DNA of 64,000 nucleotides, taken from the sequence record OL780484.1; one strand, written 5' to 3'. A program made the translations under genes and the position numbers. Numbering within the stretch: position 1 is the first letter of the stretch; each line of letters starts with the position of its first letter. This stretch comes from Escherichia phage vB_EcoM-E33. The notes beneath the pieces were generated by a model. That model was not told the DNA's origin, ran no database searches, and saw only the letters and a program-made list of their open reading frames with translations. Of the stretch, positions 7,268 to 52,174 are shown in pieces.

Positions 7268-7274
7268 GCAAAGT

Positions 7275-7303
7275 GTTTACTTCTTCTAGGGTCGTGATAT
7301 AAT
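7275..7303 (+). promoter_or_regulatory. Early (sigma70-type) promoter for rnh
   Basis: GTTTAC, 17 bp spacer, TATAAT. Confidence 0.75.
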
Positions 7304-7334
7304 GAACCTCTACACTAATTGGACAGAGGTTCAT

Positions 7335-8282
7335 ATGAACGATTTAGATTTTTTACTTCCTGAAGAAGACCAACAAAAAGATGGATTTTTACTCCTAGAT
7401 TTCAGCCAAATCATTATGGCTGCAGCTTTCCAAGAGTTTGGTGAGAATGCTGGATTTCCTAAAGTAACTACAGCAATGCTTCGACACCTCGTGTTGAATT
7501 CAATTAAGAAAAATATTAAAGACTTTAAAAAACAGGGGTACAACCAACTGGTTATTTGTGTTGATAACTCTAAATCAGGTTATTGGCGTCGTCGCTATTC
7601 ACCTTATTATAAGAAAAACCGTGCTAAGGCACGTGACGAATCACCATTTGATTGGGAAGGTTTATTCACAGCAATGCATATTATTGTTGATGAACTGGAA
7701 CAAAACATGCCTTATATTGTTATGAATATCGATACAATCGAAGCTGATGACCATATTGCTGTTTTAACCCGAATCCTCACGGCTTTAGGCCATCCAGTTA
7801 TGATTGGTTCTTCGGATGGCGACTTTACTCAACTCCATAAATTCCCTGGGGTAAAACAATGGTCTCCAATGCAGAAAAAATTCGTCAAAACAAAATCTGG
7901 CGATTCATTATTAGATTGTGTAACTAAGGTTGTTAAAGGCGACCGCAAGGATAACGTCGCGAGTATTAAAGTTCGTGGTGATTACTGGTTGACGATGGTT
8001 GAAGGCGAACGTACTCCTAGCACTCGTGCCAAGGAACTTGAAGCAATTGCTCTGAATTATTACGACCATGATATAATTAAAACACTTCTTACTGAAGAAC
8101 AATATGAACGTTTCTGTGAAAACCAAATCTTAATTGATATGGACTTTATTCCAGATGATATTGTTGCTTTAATTACTGAAAGATATAATACGTATAACAA
8201 ACCTTCGAAATCTAAAGTTTATCCTTATTTCGTTAAATCTGGTTTGTCTAAACTAACTGCTACAGTAGCTGATTTTTATTAA
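7335..8282 (+). CDS. rnh: RNase H (5'-3' exonuclease, FEN-like)
   Basis: Matches recalled T4 rnh (DFSQI..., SSDGDFTQLHK, GERTPS). ORF-track start 7302 lies inside the -10 of an early promoter; ATG 7335 has a GAGG RBS. Confidence 0.88.
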   Translation: MNDLDFLLPEEDQQKDGFLLLDFSQIIMAAAFQEFGENAGFPKVTTAMLRHLVLNSIKKNIKDFKKQGYNQLVICVDNSKSGYWRRRYSPYYKKNRAKARDESPFDWEGLFTAMHIIVDELEQNMPYIVMNIDTIEADDHIAVLTRILTALGHPVMIGSSDGDFTQLHKFPGVKQWSPMQKKFVKTKSGDSLLDCVTKVVKGDRKDNVASIKVRGDYWLTMVEGERTPSTRAKELEAIALNYYDHDIIKTLLTEEQYERFCENQILIDMDFIPDDIVALITERYNTYNKPSKSKVYPYFVKSGLSKLTATVADFY

Positions 8283-8845: not shown

Positions 8846-9495
8846 TTAAGATTCGCATGCCACCAAACAATAACCGTATGGTGAATGGTAAGAGCGTATA
8901 TTCACTATACTTAATGCTCAAACATCACTTCAATGCCAAATACGACGTTATAAAATATAACTGGGTCATGCGAATCTCTGATACGGCTTATCAAAAACGT
9001 CGTGACAAATATTTCTTTGAGAAATTGAGTGATAAATACACTTTGAAAGAGCTTGCTCTTATCTTCATGAGTAACTTGGTGGCTAACCAAGACGCATGGA
9101 TTGGCGACATCAGTGATGCTGACGCCTTAGTCTTTTACCGAGAATATATCGGTAGACTTAAAAGAATAAAACAAGTTTTTGAGGATGATATCAAAAACAT
9201 TTATTATTTTAGTAAGAAAGTGGAAGTTCAAGCGCTTTCTGAAATTTTTGATTATAATAAAAAAGTTAACTCGAGCTATATTTTTAAGCTCCTTCAATCG
9301 AATGTGATTTCATTCGAAACGTTTATTTTGCTTGATTCATTTATGGATATAATAAATAAACATGATGAACAGACCAACGATTTAGTATGGTCTAAGTATT
9401 CGACTAAATTAAATGCTTATAAGAAAATTCTTATAATCGATAATTTAGAAGCTCGTAAATGGTTCATTGAAACTATCAAATCTTGTAAGTTTTAA
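8842..9495 (+). CDS. 59: Helicase loader gp59
   Basis: 217 aa, MIKIRMP...YNWVMRISD...WIGDISDADALVFYREYIGRLK, near-identical to recalled T4 gp59 (217 aa). Confidence 0.9.
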   Translation: MIKIRMPPNNNRMVNGKSVYSLYLMLKHHFNAKYDVIKYNWVMRISDTAYQKRRDKYFFEKLSDKYTLKELALIFMSNLVANQDAWIGDISDADALVFYREYIGRLKRIKQVFEDDIKNIYYFSKKVEVQALSEIFDYNKKVNSSYIFKLLQSNVISFETFILLDSFMDIINKHDEQTNDLVWSKYSTKLNAYKKILIIDNLEARKWFIETIKSCKF

Positions 9496-9523
9496 TGCTT
9501 CAAACCAACTGTGTTAATATACT
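9496..9523 (+). promoter_or_regulatory. Putative MotA-dependent middle promoter for gene 32
   Basis: TTTAATGCTTCA MotA-box-like motif then a -10-like AATATACT about 15-17 bp downstream. Confidence 0.4.
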
Positions 9524-9584
9524 AACTCAATCTGTTAAAAACTGTTAATAAAATATAACTGCTAAATCTGCTAAGGTAAATAAT
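9524..9584 (+). promoter_or_regulatory. Gene 32 5' leader with periodic CTG(T/C)TAA repeats (putative gp32 autoregulatory operator)
   Basis: CTGTTAA at 9532 and 9542, CTGCTAA at 9559 and 9568, AU-rich, ending at the gene 32 RBS. Confidence 0.5.
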
Positions 9585-10490
9585 ATGTTTAAACGTAAAG
9601 ACCCTTCCCAACTGGCTGCTCAACTGTCTGCAATGAAAGGTGGTTCTTCTTTCTCTTCCGATGATAAAGCTGAATGGAAATTGAAAGATGACAATGGCGT
9701 TGGTACTGCGGTAATTCGTTTCCTACCTTCGAAAAACGAAGAAAATCCATCTCCATTCATTAAGCTCGTTAACCACGGCTTTAAGAAAAATGGTCAATGG
9801 TACATTGAAAACTGTACGTCTACACACGGTGATTTCGATTCATGTCCTGTATGTAAATACATGAACCAGAATGATACCTTTAATACTAATAATGCCGAAT
9901 ACAAACTGATGAAACGTAAAACTTCCTTCTGGGCTAACATCCTTGTTATTAAGGATAGTGCAGTGCCTGCTAACGAAGGTAAAGTGTTTAAATTCCGTTT
10001 CGGTCAGAAAATTATGGATAAAATCAACCAGATGGTTGAAGTTGATACCGATATTGGTGAAGTGCCGGTTGACGTAACATGTCCGTTTGATGGTGCGAAC
10101 TTCGTACTGAAATCTAAGAAAGTTGGCGACTTCAAGAACTATGACGATTCCAAATTCATGGGTCAGTCTGAAATTCCTAACATCAATGATGAAGCTTACC
10201 AAGCTAAATTGATGGAAGAAATGCACGACCTTTCTAAACTGCTCGATTTCAAATCATTCGAAACTAACGAAGCCAAGTTTAAGAAAGTTGTTGGTACAGC
10301 TGCTCTTGGTGGTGCTGCCGCTAAAGCTTCTGCAGCCGCTGATAAGATTGGTGATGACCTGGACGCATTCAGTGCAGACCTTGATGCATATGATTCTAAA
10401 CCATCTACACCGACTCGTTCCACTACTCCTGAGCCGTCAGTAAGTCCTTCTGATGACGATGGTCTGGACGACCTGTTAGCTGGTCTATAA
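9585..10490 (+). CDS. 32: ssDNA-binding protein gp32
   Basis: 301 aa, MFKRK...VIRFLPSKN...[10 protein letters not shown]...acidic C-terminus; matches recalled T4 gp32 (301 aa). Confidence 0.95.
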
Positions 10491-10506
10491 GTTATTGATT
10501 TATAAT

Positions 10507-10531
10507 GGGAAGACTTCGGTCTTCCCTTTTT
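10507..10531 (+). terminator. Intrinsic terminator after gene 32
   Basis: GGGAAGACttcgGTCTTCCC followed by TTTTT. Confidence 0.85.
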
Positions 10532-10542
10532 GGCATTTAATG

Positions 10543-10571
10543 GTTTACAACGCCTTTAAACGTGATACTAT
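10543..10571 (+). promoter_or_regulatory. Early promoter cassette
   Basis: GTTTAC, 17 bp, TACTAT, then conserved leader AGACCTATCAACTA...GAGGAAATAAAATG. Confidence 0.75.
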
Positions 10572-10599
10572 AGACCTATCAACTACATGAGGAAATAAA

Positions 10600-10989
10600 A
10601 TGGAAATCGGTAAAACTTATGAACTTCGTCCTGAATGCATTAAAGACTTTATTGAAATGGACGAATATGAAAATAATAAAAGCATGGTCGACCTTATCCA
10701 AGACAACGGAGGTTGGTTTGAAGTAAAGGATATGTTGACTATGGATGGCGACAAATTTGTGACTGAAATCGAATGTGCAAATGGCGAGATTTATAATGCA
10801 TTTGGGTTGGTGCCAAATTATTTTGAGTTGCATGAAGATGAGTTCTATTGCTTCTGTGAATATGTTGTGGAAGATAAAGAAATCGATGAGCCTATTGCTA
10901 AGGCCGGTGTGACTCAAATCCATTGCATTGTCACCGAACAGAACGTTGACCAAATCATTGAACTTTTGCAAAAAACTTTTAAGGCCTAA
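10600..10989 (+). CDS. Hypothetical acidic early protein (frd.x-like position)
   Basis: 129 aa ORF 29 nt downstream of an early promoter, RBS GAGGA; D/E-rich. Confidence 0.6.
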   Translation: MEIGKTYELRPECIKDFIEMDEYENNKSMVDLIQDNGGWFEVKDMLTMDGDKFVTEIECANGEIYNAFGLVPNYFELHEDEFYCFCEYVVEDKEIDEPIAKAGVTQIHCIVTEQNVDQIIELLQKTFKA

Positions 10990-10990
10990 T

Positions 10991-11251
10991 ATGACTAAAG
11001 ATGATTTCCTGGATGCAGTAGAAAAAGCCAGTGAGAAATTTGAAGTGATGGGTGTACGAGTTCATAAAGACCGAAATTACGGGCTCGATATCCAAACTTA
11101 TTCATTATGGCTTGTAGGTGAACATAGTCTTGTAACCACCTTAGTTATGGGTGTTGATGCCCAACCTTTACTGGTTAAATTTAGAAGTATGGAAAAAGCT
11201 ACCAAAGAAATGATTAAGCTTGGTAAATGGCTTGATAAAATTCAAAAATAA
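10991..11251 (+). CDS. Hypothetical early protein
   Basis: ATG 10991 follows the stop of the previous ORF; ORF-track start 10928 is an overlapping upstream extension. Confidence 0.55.
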   Translation: MTKDDFLDAVEKASEKFEVMGVRVHKDRNYGLDIQTYSLWLVGEHSLVTTLVMGVDAQPLLVKFRSMEKATKEMIKLGKWLDKIQK

Positions 11252-11253
11252 GT

Positions 11254-11282
11254 GTTTACAATGCCTTTAAACATGATACTAT
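11254..11282 (+). promoter_or_regulatory. Early promoter cassette (near-identical copy of 10543-10571)
   Basis: GTTTAC, 17 bp, TACTAT, same leader. Confidence 0.75.
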
Positions 11283-11314
11283 AGACCTATCAACTAATGA
11301 GTGAGGAAAATAAA

Positions 11315-11542
11315 ATGGCTAAGGTTAATATTGATATCGTTGATTTTGAATACACTTACGAAGTTATCCGTAATCGTTATCCTTCTTTAGTTATGACCCA
11401 TATTAAAGATACCCAATTCTGTAGTATGCAAATTGAAGTCCAAGGTCCTCTTGAAGACCTTACCCGCTTTATGGCTGACGAGTATTGTGACGGTATGCAC
11501 CTGGAAGACGCTAAATTTTATATGGGCCTAATTCAAAAATAA
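11315..11542 (+). CDS. Hypothetical early protein
   Basis: ATG 11315 preceded by GAGGAAAATAAA leader; an alternative in-frame ATG at 11297. Confidence 0.55.
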
Positions 11543-11572
11543 GTTTACACCAGGCTATGGTAGTGATACTAT
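11543..11572 (+). promoter_or_regulatory. Early promoter cassette
   Basis: GTTTAC, 18 bp, TACTAT; inverted repeat GGCTAT/ATAGCC spans the -10. Confidence 0.7.
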
Positions 11573-11597
11573 AGCCTTATCAACTAAGGAGAATAAA

Positions 11598-13280
<1,683 letters not shown>

Positions 13281-13341: not shown

Positions 13342-13635
13342 ATGAGAGTTTGCAGAGTTGTTAACAAGTATAAAGAAGACTTTGATGTCAATATCCAACG
13401 TGGAACTATGTGGGGTAATCCATTTAAAGATGGAACCCGCGAGGAAAACATCAAGAACTTTAAAGAATACTTTATTGCTAAAATAAAATCGGGCGAAATT
13501 AAAAGAGAACATCTTGAAACCCTTAGAGGTATGCGTATAGCGTGTACCTGTAAACCTAAGGACTGTCATGGGGATGTGATAGCCCTGGTTGTTAACAAAC
13601 TTTTCAAAGACACGTTCTCATTAGAAGACCTATAA
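13342..13635 (+). CDS. DUF4326-like small protein (nrdA.1-like position)
   Basis: 97 aa; WGNPF and C.CKPKDCHGDV motifs as I recall for DUF4326; weak RBS. Confidence 0.6.
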   Translation: MRVCRVVNKYKEDFDVNIQRGTMWGNPFKDGTREENIKNFKEYFIAKIKSGEIKREHLETLRGMRIACTCKPKDCHGDVIALVVNKLFKDTFSLEDL

Positions 13636-17630: not shown

Positions 17631-18775
17631 TTGAATTATATGATAACTTGATGGCCCTGGTTAAAAACTCGACTAAATCTAAGTTCTTCTTTAAAGACTT
17701 TCAGAGTGCTCTAGGAGTCAACTATCGCATCTTTAGTTATAACTACGCATCATACAGTGATTGGTTGGAAGACGGCGCACTAGAGTGCCGAGGCATTATG
17801 TTTGAAATGGACGAGAAAGGTCCTGTACGTATTGCCGCTCGTCCTATGCAAAAGTTCTTTAACCTCGACGAAAACCCTATGACTATCGGTCTGGATTTGT
17901 CGCCAGAAAATATCGACCTCGTAATGGCTAAGGAAGATGGTTCTCTGATTTCTACATTCATGGACCGACAGTATCTTTCTGTTAAATCTAAAGGCTCTAT
18001 CCATTCATCAATGGTGCATGATTCTTTACGGTTCCTTCGTCTCCCTGAGAACGAGGCTTTTGCCGCACGTCTAGAAGAAATCACCAAAGCTGGGTATACC
18101 TGCAACCTTGAATATGTTGCACCTACCAACCGTATCGTGCTGGCTTACCAAGAAACAAATCTCATCCTGTTGAACGTTCGTAATAATGAAACCGGTGAAT
18201 ATATTCCATATGCGGAATTGTTTAAGGACGGCGCACTGCGTAAGCATTTGGTTGAAAGCTATGAGCTCGCTGAGGGCGATTTCGTAGAAAACATCCGTAA
18301 GCAGGAAGGCATTGAAGGTTTCATCTTTGTACTGAAAGATGGTACGTTCTTTAAACTCAAAACCGCCTGGTACAGTGCACTGCATCATACCAAAGATTCC
18401 ATTAACAACAACGAACGTTTGTTTGAAGTTGTAGTGGCTGGTGGAACTGATGACCTTCGTGGTCTGTTCAGTACAGATTCCTTTGCTATCGAGAAAATCG
18501 ATGCCTTTGAACGCATCCATTTAGATTACCTAGAACAATCATTAGCCTTGTTAGAAGCAGCTTACTCTCAACTCAAAGGTCGCGACCGTAAAGACTATGC
18601 CGTTACTGGACAGCTAATCCTTAAGGACTTCCCAGGGTTGTTCTCTATTCTTATGCAGGCGTACGTAGGCGGTATTAATTATGATACGGTCATGGACCAG
18701 ATTAACTCTGTGTTCTTGAAAAATCATAAGGCCCAAATCCCTGAAAAATATTTGAAAGAAATTGTGGTAGAGTAG
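17627..18775 (+). CDS. rnlA: RNA ligase 1 (gene 63)
   Basis: 382 aa; FSYNYASYSDWL, CRGIMFEM, KEDGSL (lysine nucleotidyltransferase motif I) match recalled T4 Rnl1. Confidence 0.92.
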   Translation: MIELYDNLMALVKNSTKSKFFFKDFQSALGVNYRIFSYNYASYSDWLEDGALECRGIMFEMDEKGPVRIAARPMQKFFNLDENPMTIGLDLSPENIDLVMAKEDGSLISTFMDRQYLSVKSKGSIHSSMVHDSLRFLRLPENEAFAARLEEITKAGYTCNLEYVAPTNRIVLAYQETNLILLNVRNNETGEYIPYAELFKDGALRKHLVESYELAEGDFVENIRKQEGIEGFIFVLKDGTFFKLKTAWYSALHHTKDSINNNERLFEVVVAGGTDDLRGLFSTDSFAIEKIDAFERIHLDYLEQSLALLEAAYSQLKGRDRKDYAVTGQLILKDFPGLFSILMQAYVGGINYDTVMDQINSVFLKNHKAQIPEKYLKEIVVE

Positions 18776-18803
18776 TTTACATCTCCTCATGACGTGTTAG
18801 TAT
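18775..18803 (+). promoter_or_regulatory. Early promoter cassette upstream of the alc-like gene
   Basis: GTTTAC, 17 bp, TAGTAT; -35 overlaps the rnlA stop codon. Confidence 0.7.
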
Positions 18804-18833
18804 AGACTTACCAACTAATGAGGAGAAAACAAA

Positions 18834-19334
18834 ATGAATATGCAAATGATTACTAACGAAATGGTTGTTAAGGCTTTTGGTGACTCTACTGACGGCATCC
18901 AAGTTTTTAAAGGTTCTCGTGCAGTAGGTTACCTGACCGATCTTCGTGTCACTTTAGCTAAAAATGCTAAAAAGAAAATCAAGCAAAAAGAATACTCTAC
19001 CCGTTATGCAGAAGAAAAGCGTGAAGCAATGCCTCAAGCTGTTAACTCTATGGTCGAGTTTCTCCAAAACAACCTTTCCAAATACGATGCCGAGGTGTTT
19101 ATTAATATTAGCCAACCTAATGTTAAAATCTCAGGCATCACGTTCTATTTGATTTGCGACCCATTAAGCGACAAGTTTAATCGCCTTGGCATTTCAAGTC
19201 CTTACCATACCGCTGAAGAATTGTGTTTTATGTTCGAAACGTACAAAATTCAGTGTGAAAATCCTAAAACAGTTCTTATTAATTCCCTGTCACGTGATGA
19301 CATCATCGAGATTATTACCAAATGTCTAAATTAA
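18834..19334 (+). CDS. alc: Alc-like protein (positional assignment only)
   Basis: 166 aa ORF between rnlA and the spanins, the T4 position and approximate size of alc; sequence not independently recognised. Confidence 0.5.
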   Translation: MNMQMITNEMVVKAFGDSTDGIQVFKGSRAVGYLTDLRVTLAKNAKKKIKQKEYSTRYAEEKREAMPQAVNSMVEFLQNNLSKYDAEVFINISQPNVKISGITFYLICDPLSDKFNRLGISSPYHTAEELCFMFETYKIQCENPKTVLINSLSRDDIIEIITKCLN

Positions 19335-19962: not shown

Positions 19963-20066
19963 TTGAGACATGCGTTTGCGGTTGGGATGCCGTTAGATTT
20001 GGCGCTGCATTCTTTTGTTTTGGGATTGTGTTCAGCATGTGTATGCATGGTCTTTTCGGAAAGTAG
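19959..20066 (+). CDS. Possible 35-aa hydrophobic Cys-rich peptide
   Basis: ATG overlaps the o-spanin stop (ATGA); translates MIETCVCGWDAVRFGAAFFCFGIVFSMCMHGLFGK; below ORF-track size cutoff. Confidence 0.25.
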   Translation: MIETCVCGWDAVRFGAAFFCFGIVFSMCMHGLFGK

Positions 20067-20095
20067 TTTACAAACTCTTGGGAGCAGAGTATAAT
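20066..20095 (+). promoter_or_regulatory. Early promoter
   Basis: GTTTAC, 18 bp, TATAAT. Confidence 0.7.
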
Positions 20096-20129
20096 GCTCC
20101 TACGGATTATAAAAATTGAGGAAATTATT

Positions 20130-21333
<1,204 letters not shown>

Positions 21334-22027: not shown

Positions 22028-22057
22028 GTTTACACTATGGTAGGACTGTGGTATAGT
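22028..22057 (+). promoter_or_regulatory. Early promoter embedded in a stem-loop
   Basis: GTTTAC, 18 bp, TATAGT; 9-bp inverted repeat GGTAGGACT (22039-22047) / AGTCCTACC (22058-22066). Confidence 0.7.
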
Positions 22058-22087
22058 AGTCCTACCGAAACAAATGAGGAAATCGAA

Positions 22088-22642
22088 ATGAGCCAGTTCT
22101 TTGAAGAGCGTAAGTTTTATAAGTTCGTTGGTGAATACACTAAAAACAAATTCACTAATAACGGTGCTTATGGCCTCAATACAGCTTTTGCTAAGTATGT
22201 GGGTATGAATCCGTTTGAAGTTGAAATTGATTACCATAACGGGAAGCCACGTGTAAGCCGAATTCGTGTATATGACGAGATGATGTTTGTCGACCCGAGC
22301 AAAATGACAGGTGATCCTAATGATGCAAATAGTGTTCTTTTTAATTCATCAGGCTTTTTTAGCCATGAATTCGAATACTTTATCGAAGTGGTAGACCCTA
22401 AAGAACTGCAGTTAGTTTTCCAGAACCCTGAAATCAAACCTATTAAAACTCCGGCCGATTGGAAAGTGCTTATTGTTAAAAATGGTAAGATTGAAGTTCA
22501 TTCTCGCCATAACACAAAGGAACAAGCCGATCGTCAGGCTGAAGAGCTTTTGACTAAGTCGTTCCAACAAGTGTGTTATATTGTTAAAGGCGACGTTACC
22601 CAAGCTACCACTACCAAACAACTTAAGTTGGAGACCATCTAA
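22088..22642 (+). CDS. Hypothetical protein
   Basis: ATG 22088 with RBS GAGGA, downstream of an early promoter embedded in a stem-loop. Confidence 0.6.
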   Translation: MSQFFEERKFYKFVGEYTKNKFTNNGAYGLNTAFAKYVGMNPFEVEIDYHNGKPRVSRIRVYDEMMFVDPSKMTGDPNDANSVLFNSSGFFSHEFEYFIEVVDPKELQLVFQNPEIKPIKTPADWKVLIVKNGKIEVHSRHNTKEQADRQAEELLTKSFQQVCYIVKGDVTQATTTKQLKLETI

Positions 22643-24729: not shown

Positions 24730-24760
24730 GTTAAATCGAGGAGCCGTCGAACTGTTTGAT

Positions 24761-24780
24761 TAATGATTTGCGAATCATTA
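24761..24780 (+). terminator. Stem-loop downstream of rIII
   Basis: TAATGATTtgcgAATCATTA followed by TAGTTTTA. Confidence 0.4.
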
Positions 24781-24807
24781 TAGTTTTAAGACCCCAACAG
24801 TTTTACG

Positions 24808-24836
24808 GTGTACCTCTTGAATGTATTTTGTACTAT
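24808..24836 (+). promoter_or_regulatory. Early promoter downstream of rIII
   Basis: GTGTAC, 17 bp, TACTAT (same variant -35 as at 25206). Confidence 0.6.
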
Positions 24837-24991
24837 CACGCGTCAGAAAAAGGTTATCTGTCTAAGTCGTGGTTGGTATGATGACGAGGTTTATGGTTAT
24901 CCTGTCGTTAAATATCCGAAACCTATGTTCCCCTTGAGGGCTTGCGCAGGCAACGCCAATAAGTCCTGCATCCTAATTTAAGAGATTTAAA

Positions 24992-25153: not shown

Positions 25154-25158
25154 GTTAT

Positions 25159-25182
25159 GGGACTCTTCGGAGTCCCATTTTT
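25159..25182 (+). terminator. Intrinsic terminator
   Basis: GGGACTCttcgGAGTCCC followed by ATTTTTGTTT. Confidence 0.85.
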
Positions 25183-25205: not shown

Positions 25206-25234
25206 GTGTACATCTCCGGTAGGCATGATACTAT
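25206..25234 (+). promoter_or_regulatory. Early promoter cassette
   Basis: GTGTAC, 17 bp, TACTAT; GTACAT/ATGTAC inverted repeat flanks it. Confidence 0.7.
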
Positions 25235-25275
25235 AGACATGTACCAAATAATACTAAAACAAACCGGAGAATAAA

Positions 25276-25608
25276 ATGAAAACTGTAAATCTGAATGCAT
25301 CTGTTAAAGCTAAATGTTTCAACGGTGAATATCAAGAAACCATGTGGGTCCTGACTGCAGTTGAAGGTGATATCATCGAAGTTGAAACAACTGAAGGTAT
25401 GGGTACTGATTTTACATTCACCATCGAGCTTCACAACTTCTTTACAGGTTGGATTTATGAACTGAAAACTGTAATTACTGGTCGTATTGAAGAAAACAAA
25501 AATGGTGAATTCTATTATGTTAATGCCCGTACACGTGCTGAACGTCTGATTGCTCAGATGAAAAAAGTTGGTAAACTTGATATGAAAAATTGGAATGTTG
25601 TGAAATAA
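25276..25608 (+). CDS. Hypothetical early protein
   Basis: 110 aa, own early promoter and RBS GGAGA. Confidence 0.6.
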   Translation: MKTVNLNASVKAKCFNGEYQETMWVLTAVEGDIIEVETTEGMGTDFTFTIELHNFFTGWIYELKTVITGRIEENKNGEFYYVNARTRAERLIAQMKKVGKLDMKNWNVVK

Positions 25609-25611
25609 ATG

Positions 25612-25640
25612 TTTTACTTTGGTACAGGTTGTGTTATTAT
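25612..25640 (+). promoter_or_regulatory. Early promoter embedded in a stem-loop
   Basis: TTTTAC, 17 bp, TATTAT; perfect 9-bp inverted repeat GGTACAGGT (25621-25629) / ACCTGTACC (25644-25652). Confidence 0.65.
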
Positions 25641-25681
25641 AGACCTGTACCAAATAATACGAAAACAAACTGGAGAATAAA

Positions 25682-26047
25682 ATGAACTACATCAACTTCG
25701 AACGTAAATATGTTTCTAACGGTATCGCTGGTTCTTCTGAAGTTATTTGCCTGTGGAAACACAACAACGGCGCGGTGTGCGAAATCGAACAGTGCATGAC
25801 TCCTAACTACGTTTATATGCGCTTTGAAAATGGTATTACGGTTTCAATCACAATGGAAGGTTCTACTTTTAAAATCGCTTTAGATGATGATTTCCGTCAA
25901 CGTGATTTAGGTACCCATCCTTGCTGGAACGGTGTTAATCGTAAGCTTCTGGTTAAAACTTGGATTCGACACATCCTGAGCAACCGAGCTAAACCTGAAC
26001 ACCTGGAAGCAATCTTTGATGTAGTTCTGAACGAATTCGACATCTAA
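25682..26047 (+). CDS. Hypothetical early protein
   Basis: 121 aa, own early promoter and RBS GGAGA. Confidence 0.6.
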   Translation: MNYINFERKYVSNGIAGSSEVICLWKHNNGAVCEIEQCMTPNYVYMRFENGITVSITMEGSTFKIALDDDFRQRDLGTHPCWNGVNRKLLVKTWIRHILSNRAKPEHLEAIFDVVLNEFDI

Positions 26048-26571: not shown

Positions 26572-26784
26572 ATGGTTAAGAAATTGATTCAGAAATTATT
26601 AGGTACGGAAATGGTCGAAGTGACTTATCGTGTGACTGATTTATCTCCTGTGCATCCGCAAGATGAACCATATACTAAAACAATTAAAATGCTGAAATCT
26701 GATGGCGGATTATCTATTGAAGACCGTCTACCTGGTTATGGTCATTGGGCTGATGTCGAAATTATAAGTGTCAAAGATGTCTGA
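26572..26784 (+). CDS. Hypothetical small protein
   Basis: 70 aa ORF with RBS AGGA. Confidence 0.5.
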   Translation: MVKKLIQKLLGTEMVEVTYRVTDLSPVHPQDEPYTKTIKMLKSDGGLSIEDRLPGYGHWADVEIISVKDV

Positions 26785-29907: not shown

Positions 29908-31803
29908 ATGTCCGAACAATTGAATGAGGTATTTGATGGTGATATAAATTTATCTGCTGTCAATTTAAACCCTAAACTTAAAGTCCCACAGATTTGGAAT
30001 ATAAAGGCTGAAGGTAACGAGAACCTTGTTGCCCGCATGGTTTCATATACTTCCGAAGGCGATGTAATTCGTCAGGTTAAGCCTGGTGACAAGTATGTTC
30101 ATGTCGTTTTAATGAGCCTATCGGCTAAAGGTTCTCCTGCCGAACTCAAAGGTGGATTAGGTACCAATCCTATTTCCGCTATTCGTTCTATATTTGATAT
30201 CGTCTATGAACAGGTCAAGGCCCTTCGTATGGACGCTGTTATGTTCCGTTTTCCTACCAAGAAAATGAAAGGGCAGGAAAAAGCTATACAGAGGGTATTG
30301 GCTAAATTAATAGCCTCTAGAGCAGGCGGACAGTTTAAAGTTCTTGATGCCTTGTATCAATTCACCGGTAAGCATTCGTATGTTTTTATCTATCGTAAAA
30401 ATAAAAATATAGAATCTATAAATGGTATTCCTAATATTAATTTAGAATTGTATACTAAAGTCGAATCTGAAGTCGGTGACGTGTATGTTTCAAAGAAAAC
30501 AGGCGAAGATGTTACCAAACTAGAAGCTATAGCTAAGTCCATAGACGAAATAGAAAAATCACGTTCTGATAAAACTGTTATAACCAAAACAAAGGTTTCT
30601 AAACGTGCTGCTATCAATGCTTTATATCCTACAGCAGAGCCTACAGGATTGAGTAAATTTTCGGCAGAGCACAAAAAAGCTTATGCAGATTATTCTGCTA
30701 CTAGTTCCGTTCATTCTTCTGAAGATTCTAAAGAAAGCCAAATAGCTTTAGCCAGTAATAAAATATTAAAAGACACCTCTAAAGAAATGGCAGAATATTT
30801 GGATTATATTTTTAACGGTGTTAATCCATCATTTGAAGTAGACGAGCGCAAACTTAAACTAATTGCTGATATAAAGTTTGCTTTAGAGGCATCAGATTCT
30901 TTAGATAAATCTAATAGTGTCATAGAGGCTTTAAAATCAGGTAAATCTCATGTAGACATTCTTAGACTAGTCGCTGCGGCCCTTTTAGATGATTCAGTTA
31001 AAGGTACTTGGGCTAGAGAATCTAAAATCAAGGAAGTAATAAAATCCTTAGTAGCAGTTTATACAAAATCTATCCAACCATTGTTTAAGATATCTGATAA
31101 TCCTAATTTATCCAAACCTCAAGAAGAGGCAGTCAAAAAGTATACTCGTGGCGGCTACAACCATATAAACAACTTTTTGCTAGGTAAAACAGATACCACC
31201 GATGAAATGATAAAAATGATGGGTGAGTTGGATTCTACATTTGAAAATGGTACAAAACTTCCTAAAGGAACCATAGTGTATCGTTCTCAGATAATGCCTA
31301 CCGAAATGGCTTTGAATTCTATAAAACATAAGGTGATGTATCTTCCTATTTTTGCATCAACTTCATTGGCTCCTAATATTTTCGGTGAAATGGGTCATGC
31401 TCAATCCAACTTAGACCCTGAAGCTCTTTCTAGCGATATAGATAGTAATCTTGAAGACACCATTAAAAGTGCGACCGGAAGTGCTAGAGATACCATTAAG
31501 CTAGGGTTAATTATTAAAGGTGCTGATAAAATTAAGGTTATTGTGCCCGGTGACTTGGCTAATTGGTCTACAGAAACCGAAGTAATTCTTCCTCGTGGGG
31601 TTATGCTTAAGATTAATAAAGTATACGGTGCTTCCAAGGGACCTATGGGTTCAATTGGTAAATATGTTTTAGTGGAATGTGAAGTTGTAGCTACCGAGCA
31701 AATCACAGAGGAAAATTCATATAGCACCGGATTCTCGTTTGGAAATTATGATAGAATTATGTATGAAGATTCTATGGAAAAATTAGCAAATTTATTTAAA
31801 TAG
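29908..31803 (+). CDS. alt: Alt-like ADP-ribosyltransferase, paralog 1
   Basis: 631 aa; N-terminal region resembles recalled T4 Alt; C-terminal R/S-T-S/E-x-E motifs (VYRSQ, FASTSL, TETEVILPRG). Confidence 0.85.
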   Translation: MSEQLNEVFDGDINLSAVNLNPKLKVPQIWNIKAEGNENLVARMVSYTSEGDVIRQVKPGDKYVHVVLMSLSAKGSPAELKGGLGTNPISAIRSIFDIVYEQVKALRMDAVMFRFPTKKMKGQEKAIQRVLAKLIASRAGGQFKVLDALYQFTGKHSYVFIYRKNKNIESINGIPNINLELYTKVESEVGDVYVSKKTGEDVTKLEAIAKSIDEIEKSRSDKTVITKTKVSKRAAINALYPTAEPTGLSKFSAEHKKAYADYSATSSVHSSEDSKESQIALASNKILKDTSKEMAEYLDYIFNGVNPSFEVDERKLKLIADIKFALEASDSLDKSNSVIEALKSGKSHVDILRLVAAALLDDSVKGTWARESKIKEVIKSLVAVYTKSIQPLFKISDNPNLSKPQEEAVKKYTRGGYNHINNFLLGKTDTTDEMIKMMGELDSTFENGTKLPKGTIVYRSQIMPTEMALNSIKHKVMYLPIFASTSLAPNIFGEMGHAQSNLDPEALSSDIDSNLEDTIKSATGSARDTIKLGLIIKGADKIKVIVPGDLANWSTETEVILPRGVMLKINKVYGASKGPMGSIGKYVLVECEVVATEQITEENSYSTGFSFGNYDRIMYEDSMEKLANLFK

Positions 31804-31811
31804 GATAGATT

Positions 31812-33893
31812 ATGACCCAATTAAATGAAGTGTTCGAGTCCGAAGGTACACTGCCTGTTGTGAACTTGAACCCAAAACTTAAAGTACCTCAGATTTGGAA
31901 GATTGGAGACGCGGAGTCTCAGTTAGTAGCACGTATGGTATCCTATGCTTCTGAAGGCGATGCTATTAAACAGGTTAAGATGGGTGATAAATATGCCCAC
32001 GTTATCCTTATGAGCCTTTCAGCTAAAGGTACTCCAGCAGAACTTAAAGGTGGCTTAGGCCCTACTCCTATTGATGCTATTAATACCATTTTCGACGTAG
32101 TATTCGAACAGGTTAAAAAGCTTCGTATGGATGCCGTGATGTTCCGTTTCCCTACTAAGAAAATGAAAGGTCAAGGCCCTATCGTTCAACGGATTATCCA
32201 ACGTTTGGTAGCACAGAAAACAGGTGGACGTTTTAAAGTAGTTCCGGCTATGTACCAATTTACCGGTAAACATACTTACATCCTGGTAGTTCGTAAACAA
32301 GCTGATATAGAAGATATCAAAGGTATGCCTGGAATTAATGCTGAATTGTATACTAAGGTAGATTCTGATGTCGGTGAAGTTTATATTTCTAAAAAAGAAG
32401 GCGTGCAGGTTACTAAAGAAACTGCTATCGCCGGTAGTATTGCTAAGGTTGAAGAACGTCGCACTGATAAAATGGTTATAACCAAGACTAAGATTTCTCG
32501 ACGTGCTATTGCAGCAAGTCAATCGTTAGAATCTTATCGTAATGAAAGTGAGCTGTTTAAGAAATATGAAGCTACTGCAGTAGATTTTAATAAACCGGCA
32601 ACAGTTCCATTAATCCCTGAGGCTCAGGAAATGGTTACTAATAACAATTCTCCTGCGGCTAAAAATAAGGTTGCTAATATAGTGGCTGAAGGCACTGCTG
32701 AAGAATTGCATTACGATTATAAAATGTTCCCACTTCACGGTATTGGCGAAATCCAAGAGAAAATTAAAGAGAAAATTCTTACAGCAATAAAAAACGAACC
32801 TTTGACATCTGTTAAAGCTCTAGAAAAATATGCCTCTGCTATTAATACCATTTTCGAAGAATATAAAGGCGAGTGGCTGGCTATCCATAACAGAACTCGT
32901 AAAGGCCAACCTGATGACCTTTGGAACGAATTGACAGAGGCCAAGTGGAAAGCAGCCAAGACTAAGTTCATTAAAAAACGCGTGTATAGTTTTGCTGGTG
33001 TGGGTGGTGGTATTATGGTTGATATTACTATTGCTCGTGAAGGTTCTAAATATACTCCATCACAAAAGCGTGGTATCAGAGAATATTGTGGTTCAGGATA
33101 TACAGACATAAATAATCTTCTTTTAGGACGTTATAATCCTCAGAACTATGAGGTTATGAGCGAAAAAGATATCGAATCCGCTGTAAATAATTTAGATTCA
33201 GCTTTTGAAAATGGTGACCGTATACCGGAAGGCATTACAGTTTATCGTGCCCAGAGTATGACTGCTCCTATATACGAAGCACTAGTTAAAAATAAAGTGT
33301 TTTATTTTAGAAATTTTGTATCTACTTCTTTAACTCCTATAATTTTCGGACGTTTTGGTGTTACGCACGCTGGTATTGGTCTTTTAGAACCGGAAGTTCG
33401 CAACGAATTGACAGTTGATAAAAATGAAGAAGGAATAACTATTAATCCTAATGAAATAAGAGCATATAAAGAAAATCCTGATTATGTTAAAGTTCAAATA
33501 GGATGGGCTATTGATGGGGCCCATAAAGTTAATGTCGTATATCCAGGAAATCTCGGAATAGCAACTGAAGCCGAAGTTATTCTACCGCGTGGATTAATGG
33601 TCAAAGTTAATAAAATAACAGATGCTTCTAATAATGATGGAACAACATCTAGTAATACAAAACTCATTCAAGCTGAAGTTATGACAACAGATGAGCTTCA
33701 AGAATCTGTGGTATATGATGGTGATGTACTAATGGAAACCGGCGAGTTGGTCGTATATCAAGATGACTTCGATACTTCCGAAAGCCCCTTATCTTTTGAT
33801 TCATTTGTTAAATCTACACGGTTTGATGTACTGCCTCTTTTGGCTTCATGCATAGACCTCTATGACATCCCAGAAAAATTCATCCAAGGGTAA
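31812..33893 (+). CDS. Alt-like ADP-ribosyltransferase, paralog 2
   Basis: 693 aa; shares N-terminal ~230 aa with paralog 1; VYRAQ, FVSTSL, TEAEVILPRG. Confidence 0.85.
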   Translation: MTQLNEVFESEGTLPVVNLNPKLKVPQIWKIGDAESQLVARMVSYASEGDAIKQVKMGDKYAHVILMSLSAKGTPAELKGGLGPTPIDAINTIFDVVFEQVKKLRMDAVMFRFPTKKMKGQGPIVQRIIQRLVAQKTGGRFKVVPAMYQFTGKHTYILVVRKQADIEDIKGMPGINAELYTKVDSDVGEVYISKKEGVQVTKETAIAGSIAKVEERRTDKMVITKTKISRRAIAASQSLESYRNESELFKKYEATAVDFNKPATVPLIPEAQEMVTNNNSPAAKNKVANIVAEGTAEELHYDYKMFPLHGIGEIQEKIKEKILTAIKNEPLTSVKALEKYASAINTIFEEYKGEWLAIHNRTRKGQPDDLWNELTEAKWKAAKTKFIKKRVYSFAGVGGGIMVDITIAREGSKYTPSQKRGIREYCGSGYTDINNLLLGRYNPQNYEVMSEKDIESAVNNLDSAFENGDRIPEGITVYRAQSMTAPIYEALVKNKVFYFRNFVSTSLTPIIFGRFGVTHAGIGLLEPEVRNELTVDKNEEGITINPNEIRAYKENPDYVKVQIGWAIDGAHKVNVVYPGNLGIATEAEVILPRGLMVKVNKITDASNNDGTTSSNTKLIQAEVMTTDELQESVVYDGDVLMETGELVVYQDDFDTSESPLSFDSFVKSTRFDVLPLLASCIDLYDIPEKFIQG

Positions 33894-33896
33894 ATA

Positions 33897-36020: not shown

Positions 36021-36049
36021 TTTACAACACCACAAGGATGTGGTACTAT
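36020..36049 (+). promoter_or_regulatory. Early promoter
   Basis: GTTTAC, 18 bp, TACTAT; -35 overlaps the stop of alt paralog 3. Confidence 0.7.
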
Positions 36050-36077
36050 TACCTTACACAAACATGAGGAGAACATT

Positions 36078-36368
36078 ATGAAATCTGCATTCCGTTTTAA
36101 TGGTCAAGAACTGGTAGTTGAAAACGTTATCCCTGCTTCTGAAGAGTTTGACAGTGCAGTGGGTAATGAATTACGTCGAGTTTTCGGTGAAGACAAACAG
36201 TTTGATATCCGACCTGTTGAGAATTTTTCTTATCCAGAACAAACCGAAAACATTTTTAACGGTGTAGTGACAGGACAACTCGAATCCGAAGCTCCTATTT
36301 CGGTTACGGTGTTTGTTAAAAAGCAACCACTAATGACCACAGCAGGTTTCATTTCGTTCCGTAAATAA
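36078..36368 (+). CDS. Hypothetical protein
   Basis: 96 aa ORF with own early promoter, RBS GAGGAG, followed by a bidirectional terminator. Confidence 0.55.
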   Translation: MKSAFRFNGQELVVENVIPASEEFDSAVGNELRRVFGEDKQFDIRPVENFSYPEQTENIFNGVVTGQLESEAPISVTVFVKKQPLMTTAGFISFRK

Positions 36369-47810: not shown

Positions 47811-47840
47811 GTTTACAAGTTAAAAATTCTATGTTAAGAT
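47811..47840 (+). promoter_or_regulatory. Early promoter (weaker -10)
   Basis: GTTTAC, 18 bp, TAAGAT. Confidence 0.5.
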
Positions 47841-47869
47841 GGGTTTACCAACTCAACGAGAGAATTGAT

Positions 47870-48079
47870 ATGGATAAGGTTAAAGTACATTTTTTACACG
47901 AATCTGGGTTGAATTTTATAGAAATTGCTAAAAAAATGGGCGGGACCGCTAAGGATATGGCCAAAGCATGGGTTGATGTAGAACAAGCCAAGGCCAAATT
48001 TAAAGCGAAAGAAAAGGTTGTTTATCGTAAAAGATTGAACAACAAGGTTCGGCGCAAAGCGCGTTCTGGTTCAAAGTAA
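47870..48079 (+). CDS. Small basic protein, possible DNA/RNA-binding (24.x-like position)
   Basis: ATG 47870 with RBS GAGAGA behind an early promoter; Lys/Arg-rich C-terminus. Confidence 0.5.
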   Translation: MDKVKVHFLHESGLNFIEIAKKMGGTAKDMAKAWVDVEQAKAKFKAKEKVVYRKRLNNKVRRKARSGSK

Positions 48080-51833: not shown

Positions 51834-51863
51834 GTTTACAGCAAGATTCTCACATGTTACTAT
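51834..51863 (+). promoter_or_regulatory. Early promoter reading antisense to the late capsid block
   Basis: GTTTAC, 18 bp, TACTAT. Confidence 0.7.
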
Positions 51864-51892
51864 AGACATATCAAAACATGAGGAGATTAAAA

Positions 51893-52159
51893 ATGAACAA
51901 GTTAAACTTTATTCGTACTACTCTTTCCGCTCTTGATAAAGACATCAAAGCTCTGGTAGAAAAATTCGGTAACAATCCTAATGGTAATGCAGTGAATGCC
52001 TTAGTTAAGAAATACGAAGCCATGGCTTATGCTACCGACTTCTGGTGGAACGGTGAATACTCTACCCATACCAAAGACAAATCTGGTAACTGGCTGAAAA
52101 TCCAAGAAAATCGTATTGACTTCCGTGATATCATCAACCGCCGAGTTAAGATTGCATAA
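51893..52159 (+). CDS. Hypothetical early protein encoded antisense to the late capsid block
   Basis: ATG 51893 with RBS GAGGAG behind an early promoter; lies where T4 has segD (as I recall) but shows no endonuclease motifs. Confidence 0.55.
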   Translation: MNKLNFIRTTLSALDKDIKALVEKFGNNPNGNAVNALVKKYEAMAYATDFWWNGEYSTHTKDKSGNWLKIQENRIDFRDIINRRVKIA

Positions 52160-52174
52160 TACAGAAACAAGAAT

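Follow-up and report, generated by a model that had tools for sequence, protein, structure and literature searches.

Early promoter-leader cassettes in a Dhakavirus genome: probable T4-type promoters and occasional recombination substrates

INTRODUCTION

The 64,000-nucleotide stretch of Escherichia phage vB_EcoM-E33 (OL780484.1) analyzed here, hereafter the window, carries closely similar promoter-leader sequences in front of unrelated genes. Why are these sequences so alike, and are they mobile modules or resident regulatory sites? The first-pass annotation read them as early promoters with conserved leaders, and likened them to the promoter-early-stem-loop (PeSL) elements proposed for T4-type phages as recombination substrates for modular gene shuffling. 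PeSLs have been described in RB49/phi1, PST/T4, and nt-1/KVP40 (Arbiol 2010, PMC2839356; Comeau 2014, PMC4122927), and JS98 comes up in that work solely on account of PeSL-like sequences at the g43 locus. By megablast, the window is ~98% identical to phage WG01, and its genus is Dhakavirus, the JS98-like T4-type coliphages.

RESULTS

Detection of the cassettes

An exact search of the window for GTTTAC-N16-19-TACTAT returns five matches, all on the plus strand, against 0.02 expected. When two mismatches are allowed, the bare two-hexamer pattern falls to chance level (12 matches against 8.9 expected, and 8 against 9.0). The signal is therefore not carried by the hexamers alone, and the mismatch-tolerant pattern was dropped as evidence and replaced by an extended profile. 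A generic sigma-70 scan was likewise dropped because its 48 sites in the window represent no excess over the 54 found in shuffled sequence, which leaves the extended profile alone to discriminate.

The profile was made from an alignment (A1) of the 12 listed sites including their flanks and was used for an nhmmer search of the window. All 12 sites are recovered at 22–47 bits, and a thirteenth match appears at 7270–7319 with 21 bits. Every one of these matches is on the plus strand, the next-best match scores 8 bits, and no other exceeds 10 bits. The annotation had counted at least 13 plus-strand sites, and this number stands, with the one at 7275 joining the 12 that were listed. It had also held that the similarity runs past the promoter hexamers. 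This is indeed the case, as the sites share TGn, ATAGAC after the -10 element, (C)TAyCAAC, and a Shine-Dalgarno (SD) sequence followed by an A-rich spacer and ATG. Within the set, 24808 and 47811 stand out as weakest. An Rfam search of the window found no family.

Anatomy and promoter identity

T4 early promoters have an UP/-35/TGn/-10 architecture with extra consensus regions (PMC2988021), and the T4/PST early-promoter consensus is TTTACW-N17-TAYWAT (PMC4122927). A promoter scan finds TGn and TTTAC(A/T) hexamers at the sites, and 11 of the 13 fit the T4-type early promoter well, with a GTTTAC-like -35 element, a 17±1-bp spacer, TGn, a -10 element of the form TAnnnT, and A/T-rich sequence upstream. 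Site 24808 has no proper TGn, and the -10 element of site 47811 (TAAGAT) is weak. Hexamers (GTTTAC ... TGn TAyWAT), spacing, and A/T-rich upstream sequence are thus held in common with T4 early promoters (PMC2988021, PMC4122927), whereas the sequence favored in Dhakavirus is TACTAT running on into AGAC(C), with a CTATCAACTA leader.

Each of the 13 sites would be a sigma-70-dependent T4-type early promoter fused to a short leader. The order of parts begins in A/T-rich sequence, where the gene upstream has its stop codon, and continues with the -35 element GTTTAC, a 17/18-bp spacer ending in TGn, and the -10 element TAnnAT. The segment ATAGAC/CTAyCAAC, which would be transcribed first, comes next, and the ATG is preceded by an SD (GAGG or GGAG) and an A-rich spacer. 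This composite is present and repeated in the window, and at 11254, 11543, 18775, 22028, 25612, and 36020 the stop codon lies 0–5 nt from the -35 element. PeSLs are a repeated composite of the same kind, in which a stem-loop often spans the promoter boxes or lies between them.

Each part is under its own functional constraint, set by contacts with RNA polymerase, by a leader that is A/C-rich and unstructured, and in several cassettes by the RegB/S1 cleavage site GGAGRAYARAA. At the level of sequence and comparison, it is because each part is separately constrained by function that ~45–60 bp appear alike at unrelated genes and that junctions are shared with T4.

Gene context and conservation

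The cassettes, the terminators, and the genes between the twin copies described below are all on the plus strand. The cassettes lie upstream of, and in the same orientation as, the T4 early genes rnh, frd.2, frd.3, frd.1, alc, 30.8, 30.7, and alt.-3. The fronted genes had been described as small and of unknown function, which holds in part, because rnh and alc are also among them. Profile matches reveal T4 counterparts at equal junctions for seven window sites (frd.3, frd.1, alc, cd.3/cd.2, 30.8, 30.7, and alt.-3), and the T4 record annotates the early promoter Pe133295 at the cd.3/cd.2 junction. The same cassettes were found in Mosigvirus, Marfavirus, and Karamvirus (one genome each). A search of viral_contigs for distant counterparts, both with Cd.3 as query and with a degenerate form of the promoter, yielded nothing beyond close Dhakavirus or T4 relatives.

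The reading as early promoter plus leader is therefore supported both by sequence and by counterparts at equal T4 gene junctions, and it is from these two sources that we infer promoter activity and start sites. Because the junctions are conserved across genera, the cassettes appear to act as resident regulatory sites and not as mobile elements. A transposon or MITE-like origin was rejected, since the sites lack terminal repeats and target duplications and recur at the same junctions across genera.

The rnh cassette (7275–7337; -35 GTTTAC at 7275–7280, -10 TATAAT at 7298–7303, ATG at 7335; 21 bits, TGn present) is kept in eight of eight Dhakavirus relatives and has a counterpart in T4 and in Mosigvirus. 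The cassette at the cd.3/orf212 junction (22028–22090) occupies the same junction as T4 Pe133295. Another (20066–20132) precedes a small ORF upstream of pseT, and at its ATG there are 444–480 extra bases in WG01, PSD2002, IME08, VR5, JS98, JS10, and dhaeg. The weak cassette at 47811–47872 (25 bits), placed via the WG01 annotation, precedes a gp24.3-like ORF downstream of hoc. The cassette at 51834–51895 precedes a small ORF, homologous to WG01 ORF178, that is antisense to and between the late genes 24 and 23. In the rIII/30.9 gap, the promoter-like site at 24808–24836 (22 bits) has no adjacent SD or ATG and is doubtful because its -10 element sits on a replacement junction and is missing in JS98-type genomes. 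Rfam returned nothing for this gap at E≤1, and folding there is not in excess (z +0.7).

The twin pair and the AnYang deletion

The annotation had singled out near-identical ~60-bp copies at 10543 and 11254, and the likeness is real. Over the stretch from GTTTAC to CAACTA, 43 of 45 bases agree. A 4-base indel follows, and then a common GAGG-AAATAAAATGG with matching SD and ATG, for 57 of 64 aligned columns in all. Copy 1 (10543–10602; -35 at 10543–10548, -10 TACTAT at 10566–10571, SD GAGGAAA, ATG at 10600) precedes frd.2, whose ORF is 61% identical to T4 Frd.2. Copy 2 (11254–11317; -35 at 11254–11259, -10 at 11277–11282, ATG at 11315) precedes frd.3, with 69% identity to T4 Frd.3. Directly upstream of copy 1 is the intrinsic terminator after gene 32 (10507–10526; GGGAAGAC-TTCG-GTCTTCCC and then a T-run), the second-best terminator-like site in 7–27 kb.

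Between the copies lies a module (10600–11251) that consists of frd.2 (10600–10989) and orfX (10991–11251). Gene order in T4 is frd.3 and then frd.2, whereas in the window frd.2-orfX comes before frd.3. Among relatives, frd.2 is a divergence island, and for LQ5, PSD2002, and IME341 megablast homology starts exactly at 11254.

Phage AnYang has neither frd.2 nor orfX. The 711-bp module is gone, and a hybrid cassette stands at the junction. When compared with a synthetic product of deletion between the twins, AnYang gives a single-piece match with 100% coverage and 96.4% identity, and a further alignment (A2) places the crossover between frd.2-type CATGAGG and frd.3-type AAAATAAAATGGCT. The deletion is represented by one phage (n=1; two database records of the same phage), and an assembly artifact may be an alternative source. 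As judged from sequence, the loss fits recombination between the twin copies, and at this locus the proposed role as recombination substrate gains support from both the hybrid junction and the single-piece match. PeSLs show the same arrangement, in that neighboring copies bracket small non-essential genes and a relative carries a deletion with a chimeric junction cassette (compare RB49 ORF192 with phi1). Recombination of neighboring copies in which the ORFs between them are lost and a single chimeric element stays behind was found in this one case.

The twin spacers tell of exchange as well. They differ at 0–2 positions in the window, WG01, and PSD2002 (where the two are identical), at 4 in IME08 and Bp7, and at 5–6 in JS98, JS10, dhaeg, and VR5. 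The frd.3 promoter spacer has been homogenized to the frd.2 type in the WG01 clade only. Tandem duplication was rejected as the origin of the twins because the flanked ORFs are unrelated and the frd.3 spacer varies among relatives.

Hybrid cassettes and breakpoints elsewhere

In VR5, P(frd.3) carries a leader of the frd.2 type and P(alc) carries the leader of alt.-3. The loss of 30.8 and 30.7 in JS10 begins just past the -10 element of P(30.8), is joined through a consensus leader, and has its left end at 25238, inside the 30.8 cassette. In the window, the leaders at 25206 and 25612 form a second near-identical pair, with 43 of 46 bases identical downstream of the -10 element. A synthetic deletion test with this pair found no natural deletion variant among the top 30 matches. 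A T4 pair, the alc and alt.-3 cassettes, is identical at 53 of 54 positions.

Breakpoints of insertions, deletions, and replacements were then counted in eight relatives at gene starts with and without a cassette. They are not enriched at cassettes (6 of 11 cassette gene starts versus 16 of 34 others, Fisher p=0.47), and most inserted segments in relatives have no cassette (frd.1/frd, frd/td, cd.1, nrdA.1, and others). Cassettes are partly converted or swapped between loci, and are not the main site of gene gain or loss in the genus.

Hairpins joining the spacer to the leader or SD

Several cassettes had been described as embedded in inverted repeats. Six of them do carry hairpins (11543, 18775, 20066, 22028, 25206, and 25612; fold z -2.6 to -4.3), but the description fails for the twin pair (z -0.13 at 10543 and +1.36 at 11254). 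At 51834 and at the alt.-3 cassette (36020–36080; a small ACCACA/TGTGGT hairpin within the spacer, z -1.31), the fold is not significant.

Two of the six place the 3' arm over the SD/AUG and the 5' arm upstream of the start site. In the alc cassette (18775–18836), CTCCTCAT in the spacer can pair with ATGAGGAG in the SD region (duplex -16.5; fold -17.6, z -4.34), and in the 30.8 cassette (25206–25278; z -2.62) CTCCGGT in the spacer is the complement of ACCGGAG in the SD region. The other four carry the 3' arm at the -10 element or +1 and not at the SD. These are the frd.1 cassette (11543–11600), with GGCUAUGGUAG/ACUAUAGCC around the -10 element and a fold of -15.6 kcal/mol (z -2.96), and three with inverted repeats across the -10 element: GGGAGCA/TGCTCC(T) at 20066 (z -3.74), GGTAGGACT/AGTCCTACC at 22028 (z -2.73), and GGTACAGGT/ACCTGTACC in the 30.7 cassette (25612–25684; z -3.98).

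Cognate spacer-leader duplexes average -12.35 kcal/mol versus -7.65 for non-cognate ones, and none of 5000 permutations reaches the observed mean, in a sample of partly orthologous cassettes that are not fully independent. In 17 of 21 strong cases the fold of the sense strand is more stable than that of the antisense strand, with a baseline difference of about 0. Five genera have spacer-leader or spacer-SD hairpins, with arm sequences that differ, and the SD itself forms the 3' arm in alc, 30.8, Karamvirus 30.7, and T4 alc/30.8.

None of the cassette-internal hairpins was called terminator-like, and a terminator function was rejected because they have no U-tract. Only two separate hairpins were so called, the one at 10507 and the intrinsic terminator after 30.9 (25157–25178), which is the best terminator-like site in 7–27 kb and is directly upstream of cassette 25206. 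In the mechanism that we propose, transcripts read through from upstream would fold the hairpin, the promoter spacer being complementary to the leader start or the SD. Transcripts begun at the cassette's own promoter would have no 5' arm, so their leader would stay free. The hairpins probably mark read-through transcripts, a function that we infer.

There is precedent in the T4 genes e, soc, 49, and I-TevI, where late promoters are embedded and expression is delayed. Longer transcripts from upstream fold the hairpin, which blocks translation of early read-through RNA, and those from the embedded promoter do not (PMC3014915). As in those genes, the promoter lies inside or between the hairpin arms and the 3' arm falls on the SD or start (alc, 30.8), an arrangement also present at T4 alc/30.8 and Karamvirus alc/30.7. 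In contrast, the T4 examples use late (gp55) promoters and the embedded promoters of the window are early-type, and four cassettes of the window have a 3' arm that reaches over the transcript start and not the SD. Because the embedded promoter is early here, the same logic would confine expression to immediate-early times.

RegB sites

The strong RegB consensus is GGAGRAYARAA, cut as GG*AGRAYARAA (PMC3014915). Cassettes 11543, 25206, and 25612 end in GGAGAATAAAA, a perfect match to this consensus (the frd.1 and 30.8 cassettes were recorded as ending in GGAGAATAAAATG). These three cassettes thereby share exactly the RegB/S1 target of T4 early mRNAs and are putative cleavage sites. The site is partial at 18775, 36020, and 51834, where GGAG is the SD, and is absent from twins 10543 and 11254 (GGAA). 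Since the twins use GAGGAAA instead of GGAG, they are probably not RegB targets.

DISCUSSION

We consider it likely that the 13 sites are T4-type early promoters with short leaders that occasionally act as recombination substrates, six of them with a hairpin feature tied to read-through. A strict PeSL interpretation would go further. On that view the sites are mobile elements composed of promoter and terminator, their stem-loops halt transcription arriving from upstream, and recombination among them through mini-circles accounts for most differences in gene content within the genus. Their composite anatomy does equal the published figures (PMC2839356, PMC4122927), cassettes 10543 and 25206 each have a true terminator directly upstream, and the AnYang deletion, the hybrid cassettes, and a gene order divergent from T4, with twin promoters on either side of frd.2-orfX, are all compatible with it. 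We nonetheless regard it as unlikely, given junctions conserved from Dhakavirus to T4, Mosigvirus, Marfavirus, and Karamvirus, and inserted segments that mostly have no cassettes. The window also departs from described PeSLs in that its promoters are T4-like and not TTGACA/TATAAT, its stems are not of the G-run/C-run type, and indels are not enriched at its cassettes in the eight relatives. Modular shuffling of the PeSL type, as first suggested, is therefore partly supported. It is favored by the AnYang deletion and by hybrid or converted cassettes (VR5, JS10, and the WG01 clade), and opposed by the unenriched breakpoints, by twins with no stem-loop, and by hairpins that are not terminator-like.

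At the other extreme, selection on strong early promoters and leaders could be the only force, with no recombination role and with twin identity due to chance retention or local duplication. A known function exists for every conserved block (UP, -35, TGn, -10, SD, and RegB site; PMC2988021, PMC3014915), and the T4 counterparts at the same junctions and the unenriched breakpoints agree with this account. What makes it very unlikely is that the AnYang junction is a hybrid of both copies, exactly as predicted by crossing-over within the repeat. Moreover, the twin spacer is free of RNA polymerase constraint, yet is identical in PSD2002 while differing at 5–6 of 17 positions in JS98-type genomes, VR5 has swapped leaders between unlinked cassettes, and the T4 alc/alt.-3 pair is almost identical. 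It is similarly improbable that the inverted repeats work in DNA, as cruciforms or hairpins for promoter opening, as targets of recombination or endonuclease VII, or as sites for a dimeric regulator. Although the arms flank or include the -10 element and so place it in a loop, and the crossovers of RB49 PeSL mini-circles were mapped in or near the stem-loop (PMC2839356), arm sequences that vary by promoter and genus argue against a common protein site. G.U pairs favor the sense strand in the 17 of 21 cases, which indicates a single strand, most simply RNA, and a 3' arm that is the SD has an obvious meaning at the RNA level. The crossovers seen here fall in the -10/ATAGAC core for JS10 and in the SD-ATG segment for AnYang, where the pair involved lacks an inverted repeat.

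The preferred reading, then, is that the cassettes are an already known kind of element, the T4-type early promoter with a short mRNA leader. Being direct repeats of ~45–60 bp, they would occasionally serve phage homologous recombination as substrates. Most gene gains and losses in the genus bypass them, which makes their part in genome change an occasional one and not the driving force. For the plasticity of T4-type genomes, this extends the promoter-cassette picture to a fourth lineage, Dhakavirus. It also adds a clean example in a sequenced isolate with two direct copies, one relative of which has no intervening module and retains a hybrid cassette. In the engineering and annotation of therapeutic Dhakavirus phages, the cassette profile serves to mark immediate-early transcription units and to predict sites of spontaneous deletion such as frd.2-orfX.

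If real at the RNA level, the hairpins are a testable layer of early-gene control that the T4 reviews covered by this analysis do not describe. We tentatively suggest that in the Tevenvirinae many early promoters may be built into hairpins that form only on read-through, with the promoter spacer as 5' arm and the leader start or the SD/RegB site as 3' arm, which would limit translation and RegB exposure to mRNAs begun at the own promoter, and that the PeSL stem-loop may be such a device. If true, the stem-loop of PeSL-type elements would report transcript origin and would not be a terminator or a recombination signal. The arrangement would mirror that of genes e, soc, 49, and I-TevI, whose hairpins embed late promoters, and genes such as alc, 30.8, and 30.7 would be confined to the immediate-early period of infection.

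Early-Promoter Cassettes in a JS98-Like Phage

Megablast searches with 10000-13000 and 7001-32000 identify the window as a JS98-like T4-type coliphage of the genus Dhakavirus. Its closest relative is WG01 (~98% identity), followed by QL01, IME281, Bp7, IME08, JS10, and JS98. The conventional T4 map runs opposite to the window plus strand, on which the order is rnh-dsbA-33-59-32-frd.2-orfX-frd.3-frd.1-frd-td-nrdA-nrdB-denA-rnlA-alc and, further on after alc, pseT-cd-31-rIII-30.9 to 30-alt paralogues-alt.-3, then late genes. T4 has the different order 32-frd.3-frd.2-frd.1; in the window, a module of frd.2 and orfX (a small ORF at 10991-11251) precedes frd.3 and lies between twin promoters.

Several other local differences were encountered. 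A segG-like homing endonuclease gene (~685 bp) sits between 59 and 32 in PSD2002, Bp7, VR5, and AnYang and is lacking in the window (9493-9537). The nrdA.1 homologue (13342-13630; a DUF4326-like protein per Karamvirus annotation) is precisely missing, as 287 bp, from PSD2002, IME08, and VR5, and neither edge carries a cassette. Relative to the window, the 30.4 region (26572-26778) shows a tandem paralogue gain of ~220 bp in WG01, PSD2002, and dhaeg. At 29908-36000, Alt-like ADP-ribosyltransferase paralogues stand in tandem, three in the window and two or three in relatives; homology is broken several times within them, at 30608, 31796-31926, and 33049-33763.

The first-pass annotation had proposed at least 13 plus-strand promoter cassettes sharing more than two hexamers. 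Exact GTTTAC-N16-19-TACTAT occurs five times in the window, always on the plus strand, versus 0.02 expected. Because the bare two-hexamer pattern with two mismatches shows no excess over chance in the window, and neither does a generic sigma-70 scan (48 sites vs 54 in shuffles), the hexamers alone are not the signal. A profile made from the twelve sites of that annotation and their flanking sequence recovered each of them (22-47 bits) and added a thirteenth, before rnh at 7275 (21 bits); the next match reaches only 8 bits. This agrees with the proposed count. Site 24808 is doubtful as a cassette: no SD or ATG adjoins it, and its -10 coincides with the junction of a replacement (44 versus 137 nt). 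As had been claimed, the sites also share TGn, ATAGAC after the -10, a CTAyCAAC leader, and an SD with an A-rich spacer. The near-identity of the twins at 10543-10602 (copy 1, frd.2) and 11254-11317 (copy 2, frd.3) likewise holds, with 43 of 45 bases common from the -35 hexamer to CAACTA, then a 4-base indel and a common SD-to-ATG segment (57/64 aligned columns in all). The leaders at 25206 (30.8) and 25612 (30.7) form a second near-identical pair (43/46 bases), which the first-pass annotation had not singled out. The repeated-cassette observation is real.

The rIII/30.9 gap (24730-24991) comprises ~260 nt of non-coding sequence, and T4 and a Mosigvirus have almost the same sequence over its last ~110 nt. 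In JS98, JS10, dhaeg, and VR5, 137 nt take the place of 44 nt of this gap. Rfam gave no match to this gap, and its folding is not in excess (z +0.7).

The ORFs behind the cassettes are homologues of T4 early genes, including Frd.2 (61% identity), Frd.3 (69%), Frd.1 (72%), Alc (50%), 30.8 (78%), and 30.7 (93%). The same profile matches T4 at seven corresponding gene junctions, and the T4 record has an early promoter, Pe133295, between cd.3 and cd.2, the counterpart of site 22028. Equivalent cassettes precede the same genes in one Mosigvirus, one Marfavirus, and one Karamvirus. The cassettes share the UP/-35/TGn/-10 anatomy of T4 early promoters, with its additional consensus regions (PMC2988021), and the T4/PST consensus TTTACW-N17-TAYWAT (PMC4122927). 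Furthermore, the 3' ends of 11543 (frd.1), 25206, and 25612 (GGAGAATAAAA) exactly fit the strong RegB/S1 site GGAGRAYARAA (PMC3014915). Judged by sequence, the cassettes belong to the T4 early-promoter class. By sequence and by comparison, the homologues, shared junctions, published anatomy, and RegB fit together show the cassette to be a complete unit of immediate-early expression, with a known function for every conserved block. Transcription would be expected to initiate at these sites.

Within 51834-52160, an early-type cassette fronts, and presumably drives, a small ORF homologous to WG01 ORF178; the ORF is placed between the late head genes 24 and 23, in antisense orientation to them.

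Hairpins Pairing Spacer and Leader

Several cassettes had been described as embedded in inverted repeats. When folded from -35 to ATG, this is true of 11543, 18775 (alc), 20066, 22028, 25206, and 25612 (z -2.6 to -4.3), but not of the twins (z -0.13 and +1.36); structure at 36020 (alt.-3) and 51834 was also not significant. In every case the promoter spacer pairs either with a segment immediately past the -10 or with the SD, as in the arms of alc (CTCCTCAT/ATGAGGAG) and 30.8 (CTCCGGT/ACCGGAG). This was the least expected result.

Pairing was assessed in 37 cassettes, partly orthologous and not fully independent, from the window, three other Dhakaviruses, T4, Mosigvirus, Marfavirus, and Karamvirus. 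Among these partly orthologous cassettes, spacers pair with their own leaders at a mean of -12.35 kcal/mol, versus -7.65 kcal/mol with other leaders (Mann-Whitney p=4e-7), and 0 of 5000 permutations reached the observed mean. Duplexes at -16 kcal/mol or lower occur in 13/37 cognate pairs versus 0.7% of non-cognate pairs. At one and the same junction, the arms vary by genus: those of frd.1 are GGCTAT, GGGCTAT, ATAGGGCTA, GTGTAGAGG, and GGGTA, and those of Karamvirus alc extend to 12 bp (CTCCATTTGGTT/AACCAAATGGAG). Owing to G.U pairs, the sense strand is stabler than the antisense strand in 17 of 21 strong cases, against a non-cognate baseline difference of ~0.

All cassette-internal hairpins lack a U-tract; nearby, only two separate hairpins, at 10507 and 25157, look like terminators. 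The cassette hairpins are most economically read as RNA structures that would form only when transcription reads through from upstream; transcripts begun at the embedded promoter would lack the 5' arm. Hairpins over the translation start of T4 genes e, soc, 49, and I-TevI are a parallel, but they embed late promoters (PMC3014915). RNA structure also shields GGAG from RegB (PMC3014915). We infer a function for the cassette hairpins.

Probable Recombination Between Cassettes

The predicted product of a crossover inside GATACTATAGACCTATCAACTA, which is common to the twins, was built and searched against the phage collection. AnYang matches it in a single piece (100% coverage, 96.4% identity), whereas every other Dhakavirus in the collection matches in two. 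In AnYang, a lone cassette stands between gene 32, with its terminator, and frd.3. The junction follows copy 1 to CAACTACATGAGG and copy 2 from AAAATAAAATGGCT on, and is thus a hybrid cassette with its crossover in the SD-ATG segment. T4, Mosigvirus, Marfavirus, and every other Dhakavirus examined have frd.2, so a deletion is the simplest reading of AnYang.

The frd.2 ORF (10600-10950) is itself a divergence island, with 66-84% nucleotide similarity or none in PSD2002, JS98, JS10, dhaeg, Bp7, and VR5, between flanks 96-99% identical. Its 5' boundary falls exactly at the cassette ATG, and JS98, JS10, and dhaeg carry a tandem paralogue (frd.2a/frd.2b).

Across 17 spacer positions, the frd.2 and frd.3 cassettes differ at 0-2 in the window, WG01, and PSD2002; the figure is 4 for IME08 and Bp7 and 5-6 for JS98, JS10, dhaeg, and VR5. 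This pattern makes the twin identity a derived, converted state. In VR5, frd.3 has an frd.2-type leader and alc has the alt.-3 leader (alc promoter at 20610-20683 of the VR5 record). JS10 lacks 30.8 and 30.7; the deletion begins right after the -10/ATAGAC of the 30.8 promoter and joins to 30.6 via a consensus leader. T4 has its own twin pair, alt.-3 and alc (AF158101 2030-2107 and 15273-15343, minus strand), identical at 53/54 positions from -35 to SD though 13 kb apart.

The first-pass annotation likened the cassettes to promoter-early stem-loop (PeSL) recombination substrates. The AnYang deletion, the hybrid cassettes, the converted twin spacers, T4's own twin pair, and the changed gene order around frd.2-orfX favor this view, but a dominant role is not borne out. 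Among 45 gene starts from 7 to 37 kb, scored for indels or replacements in eight relatives, breakpoints are not enriched at cassettes (6/11 gene starts with versus 16/34 without; Fisher p=0.47). In the same relatives, inserted segments mostly do not carry cassettes; cassette-free examples include the segG-like gene, the frd.2 paralogue, ORFs between frd.1/frd and frd/td, nrdA.1, cd.1, and a nrdB intron. At cassette 20066, start-codon regions are joined across a 444-480-bp indel through an overlap of just 5-14 bp, and no deletion variant of the 25206/25612 pair was found among the best 30 matches listed.

The cassettes resemble PeSLs in composite anatomy and in one relative's deletion with a chimeric junction. 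They depart from PeSLs on three points: a stem-loop is missing from the focal pair, the internal hairpins do not look like terminators, and cassettes show no enrichment of indels. PeSL papers deal with RB49/phi1, PST/T4, and nt-1/KVP40 and name JS98 for g43 alone; none of the four papers that a full-text search for PeSL brought up concerns Dhakavirus. The earlier interpretation holds for the kind of element and, in part, for the mechanism. The twins and AnYang provide one good natural example of cassette-mediated deletion, and a limit is now set on how general it is.
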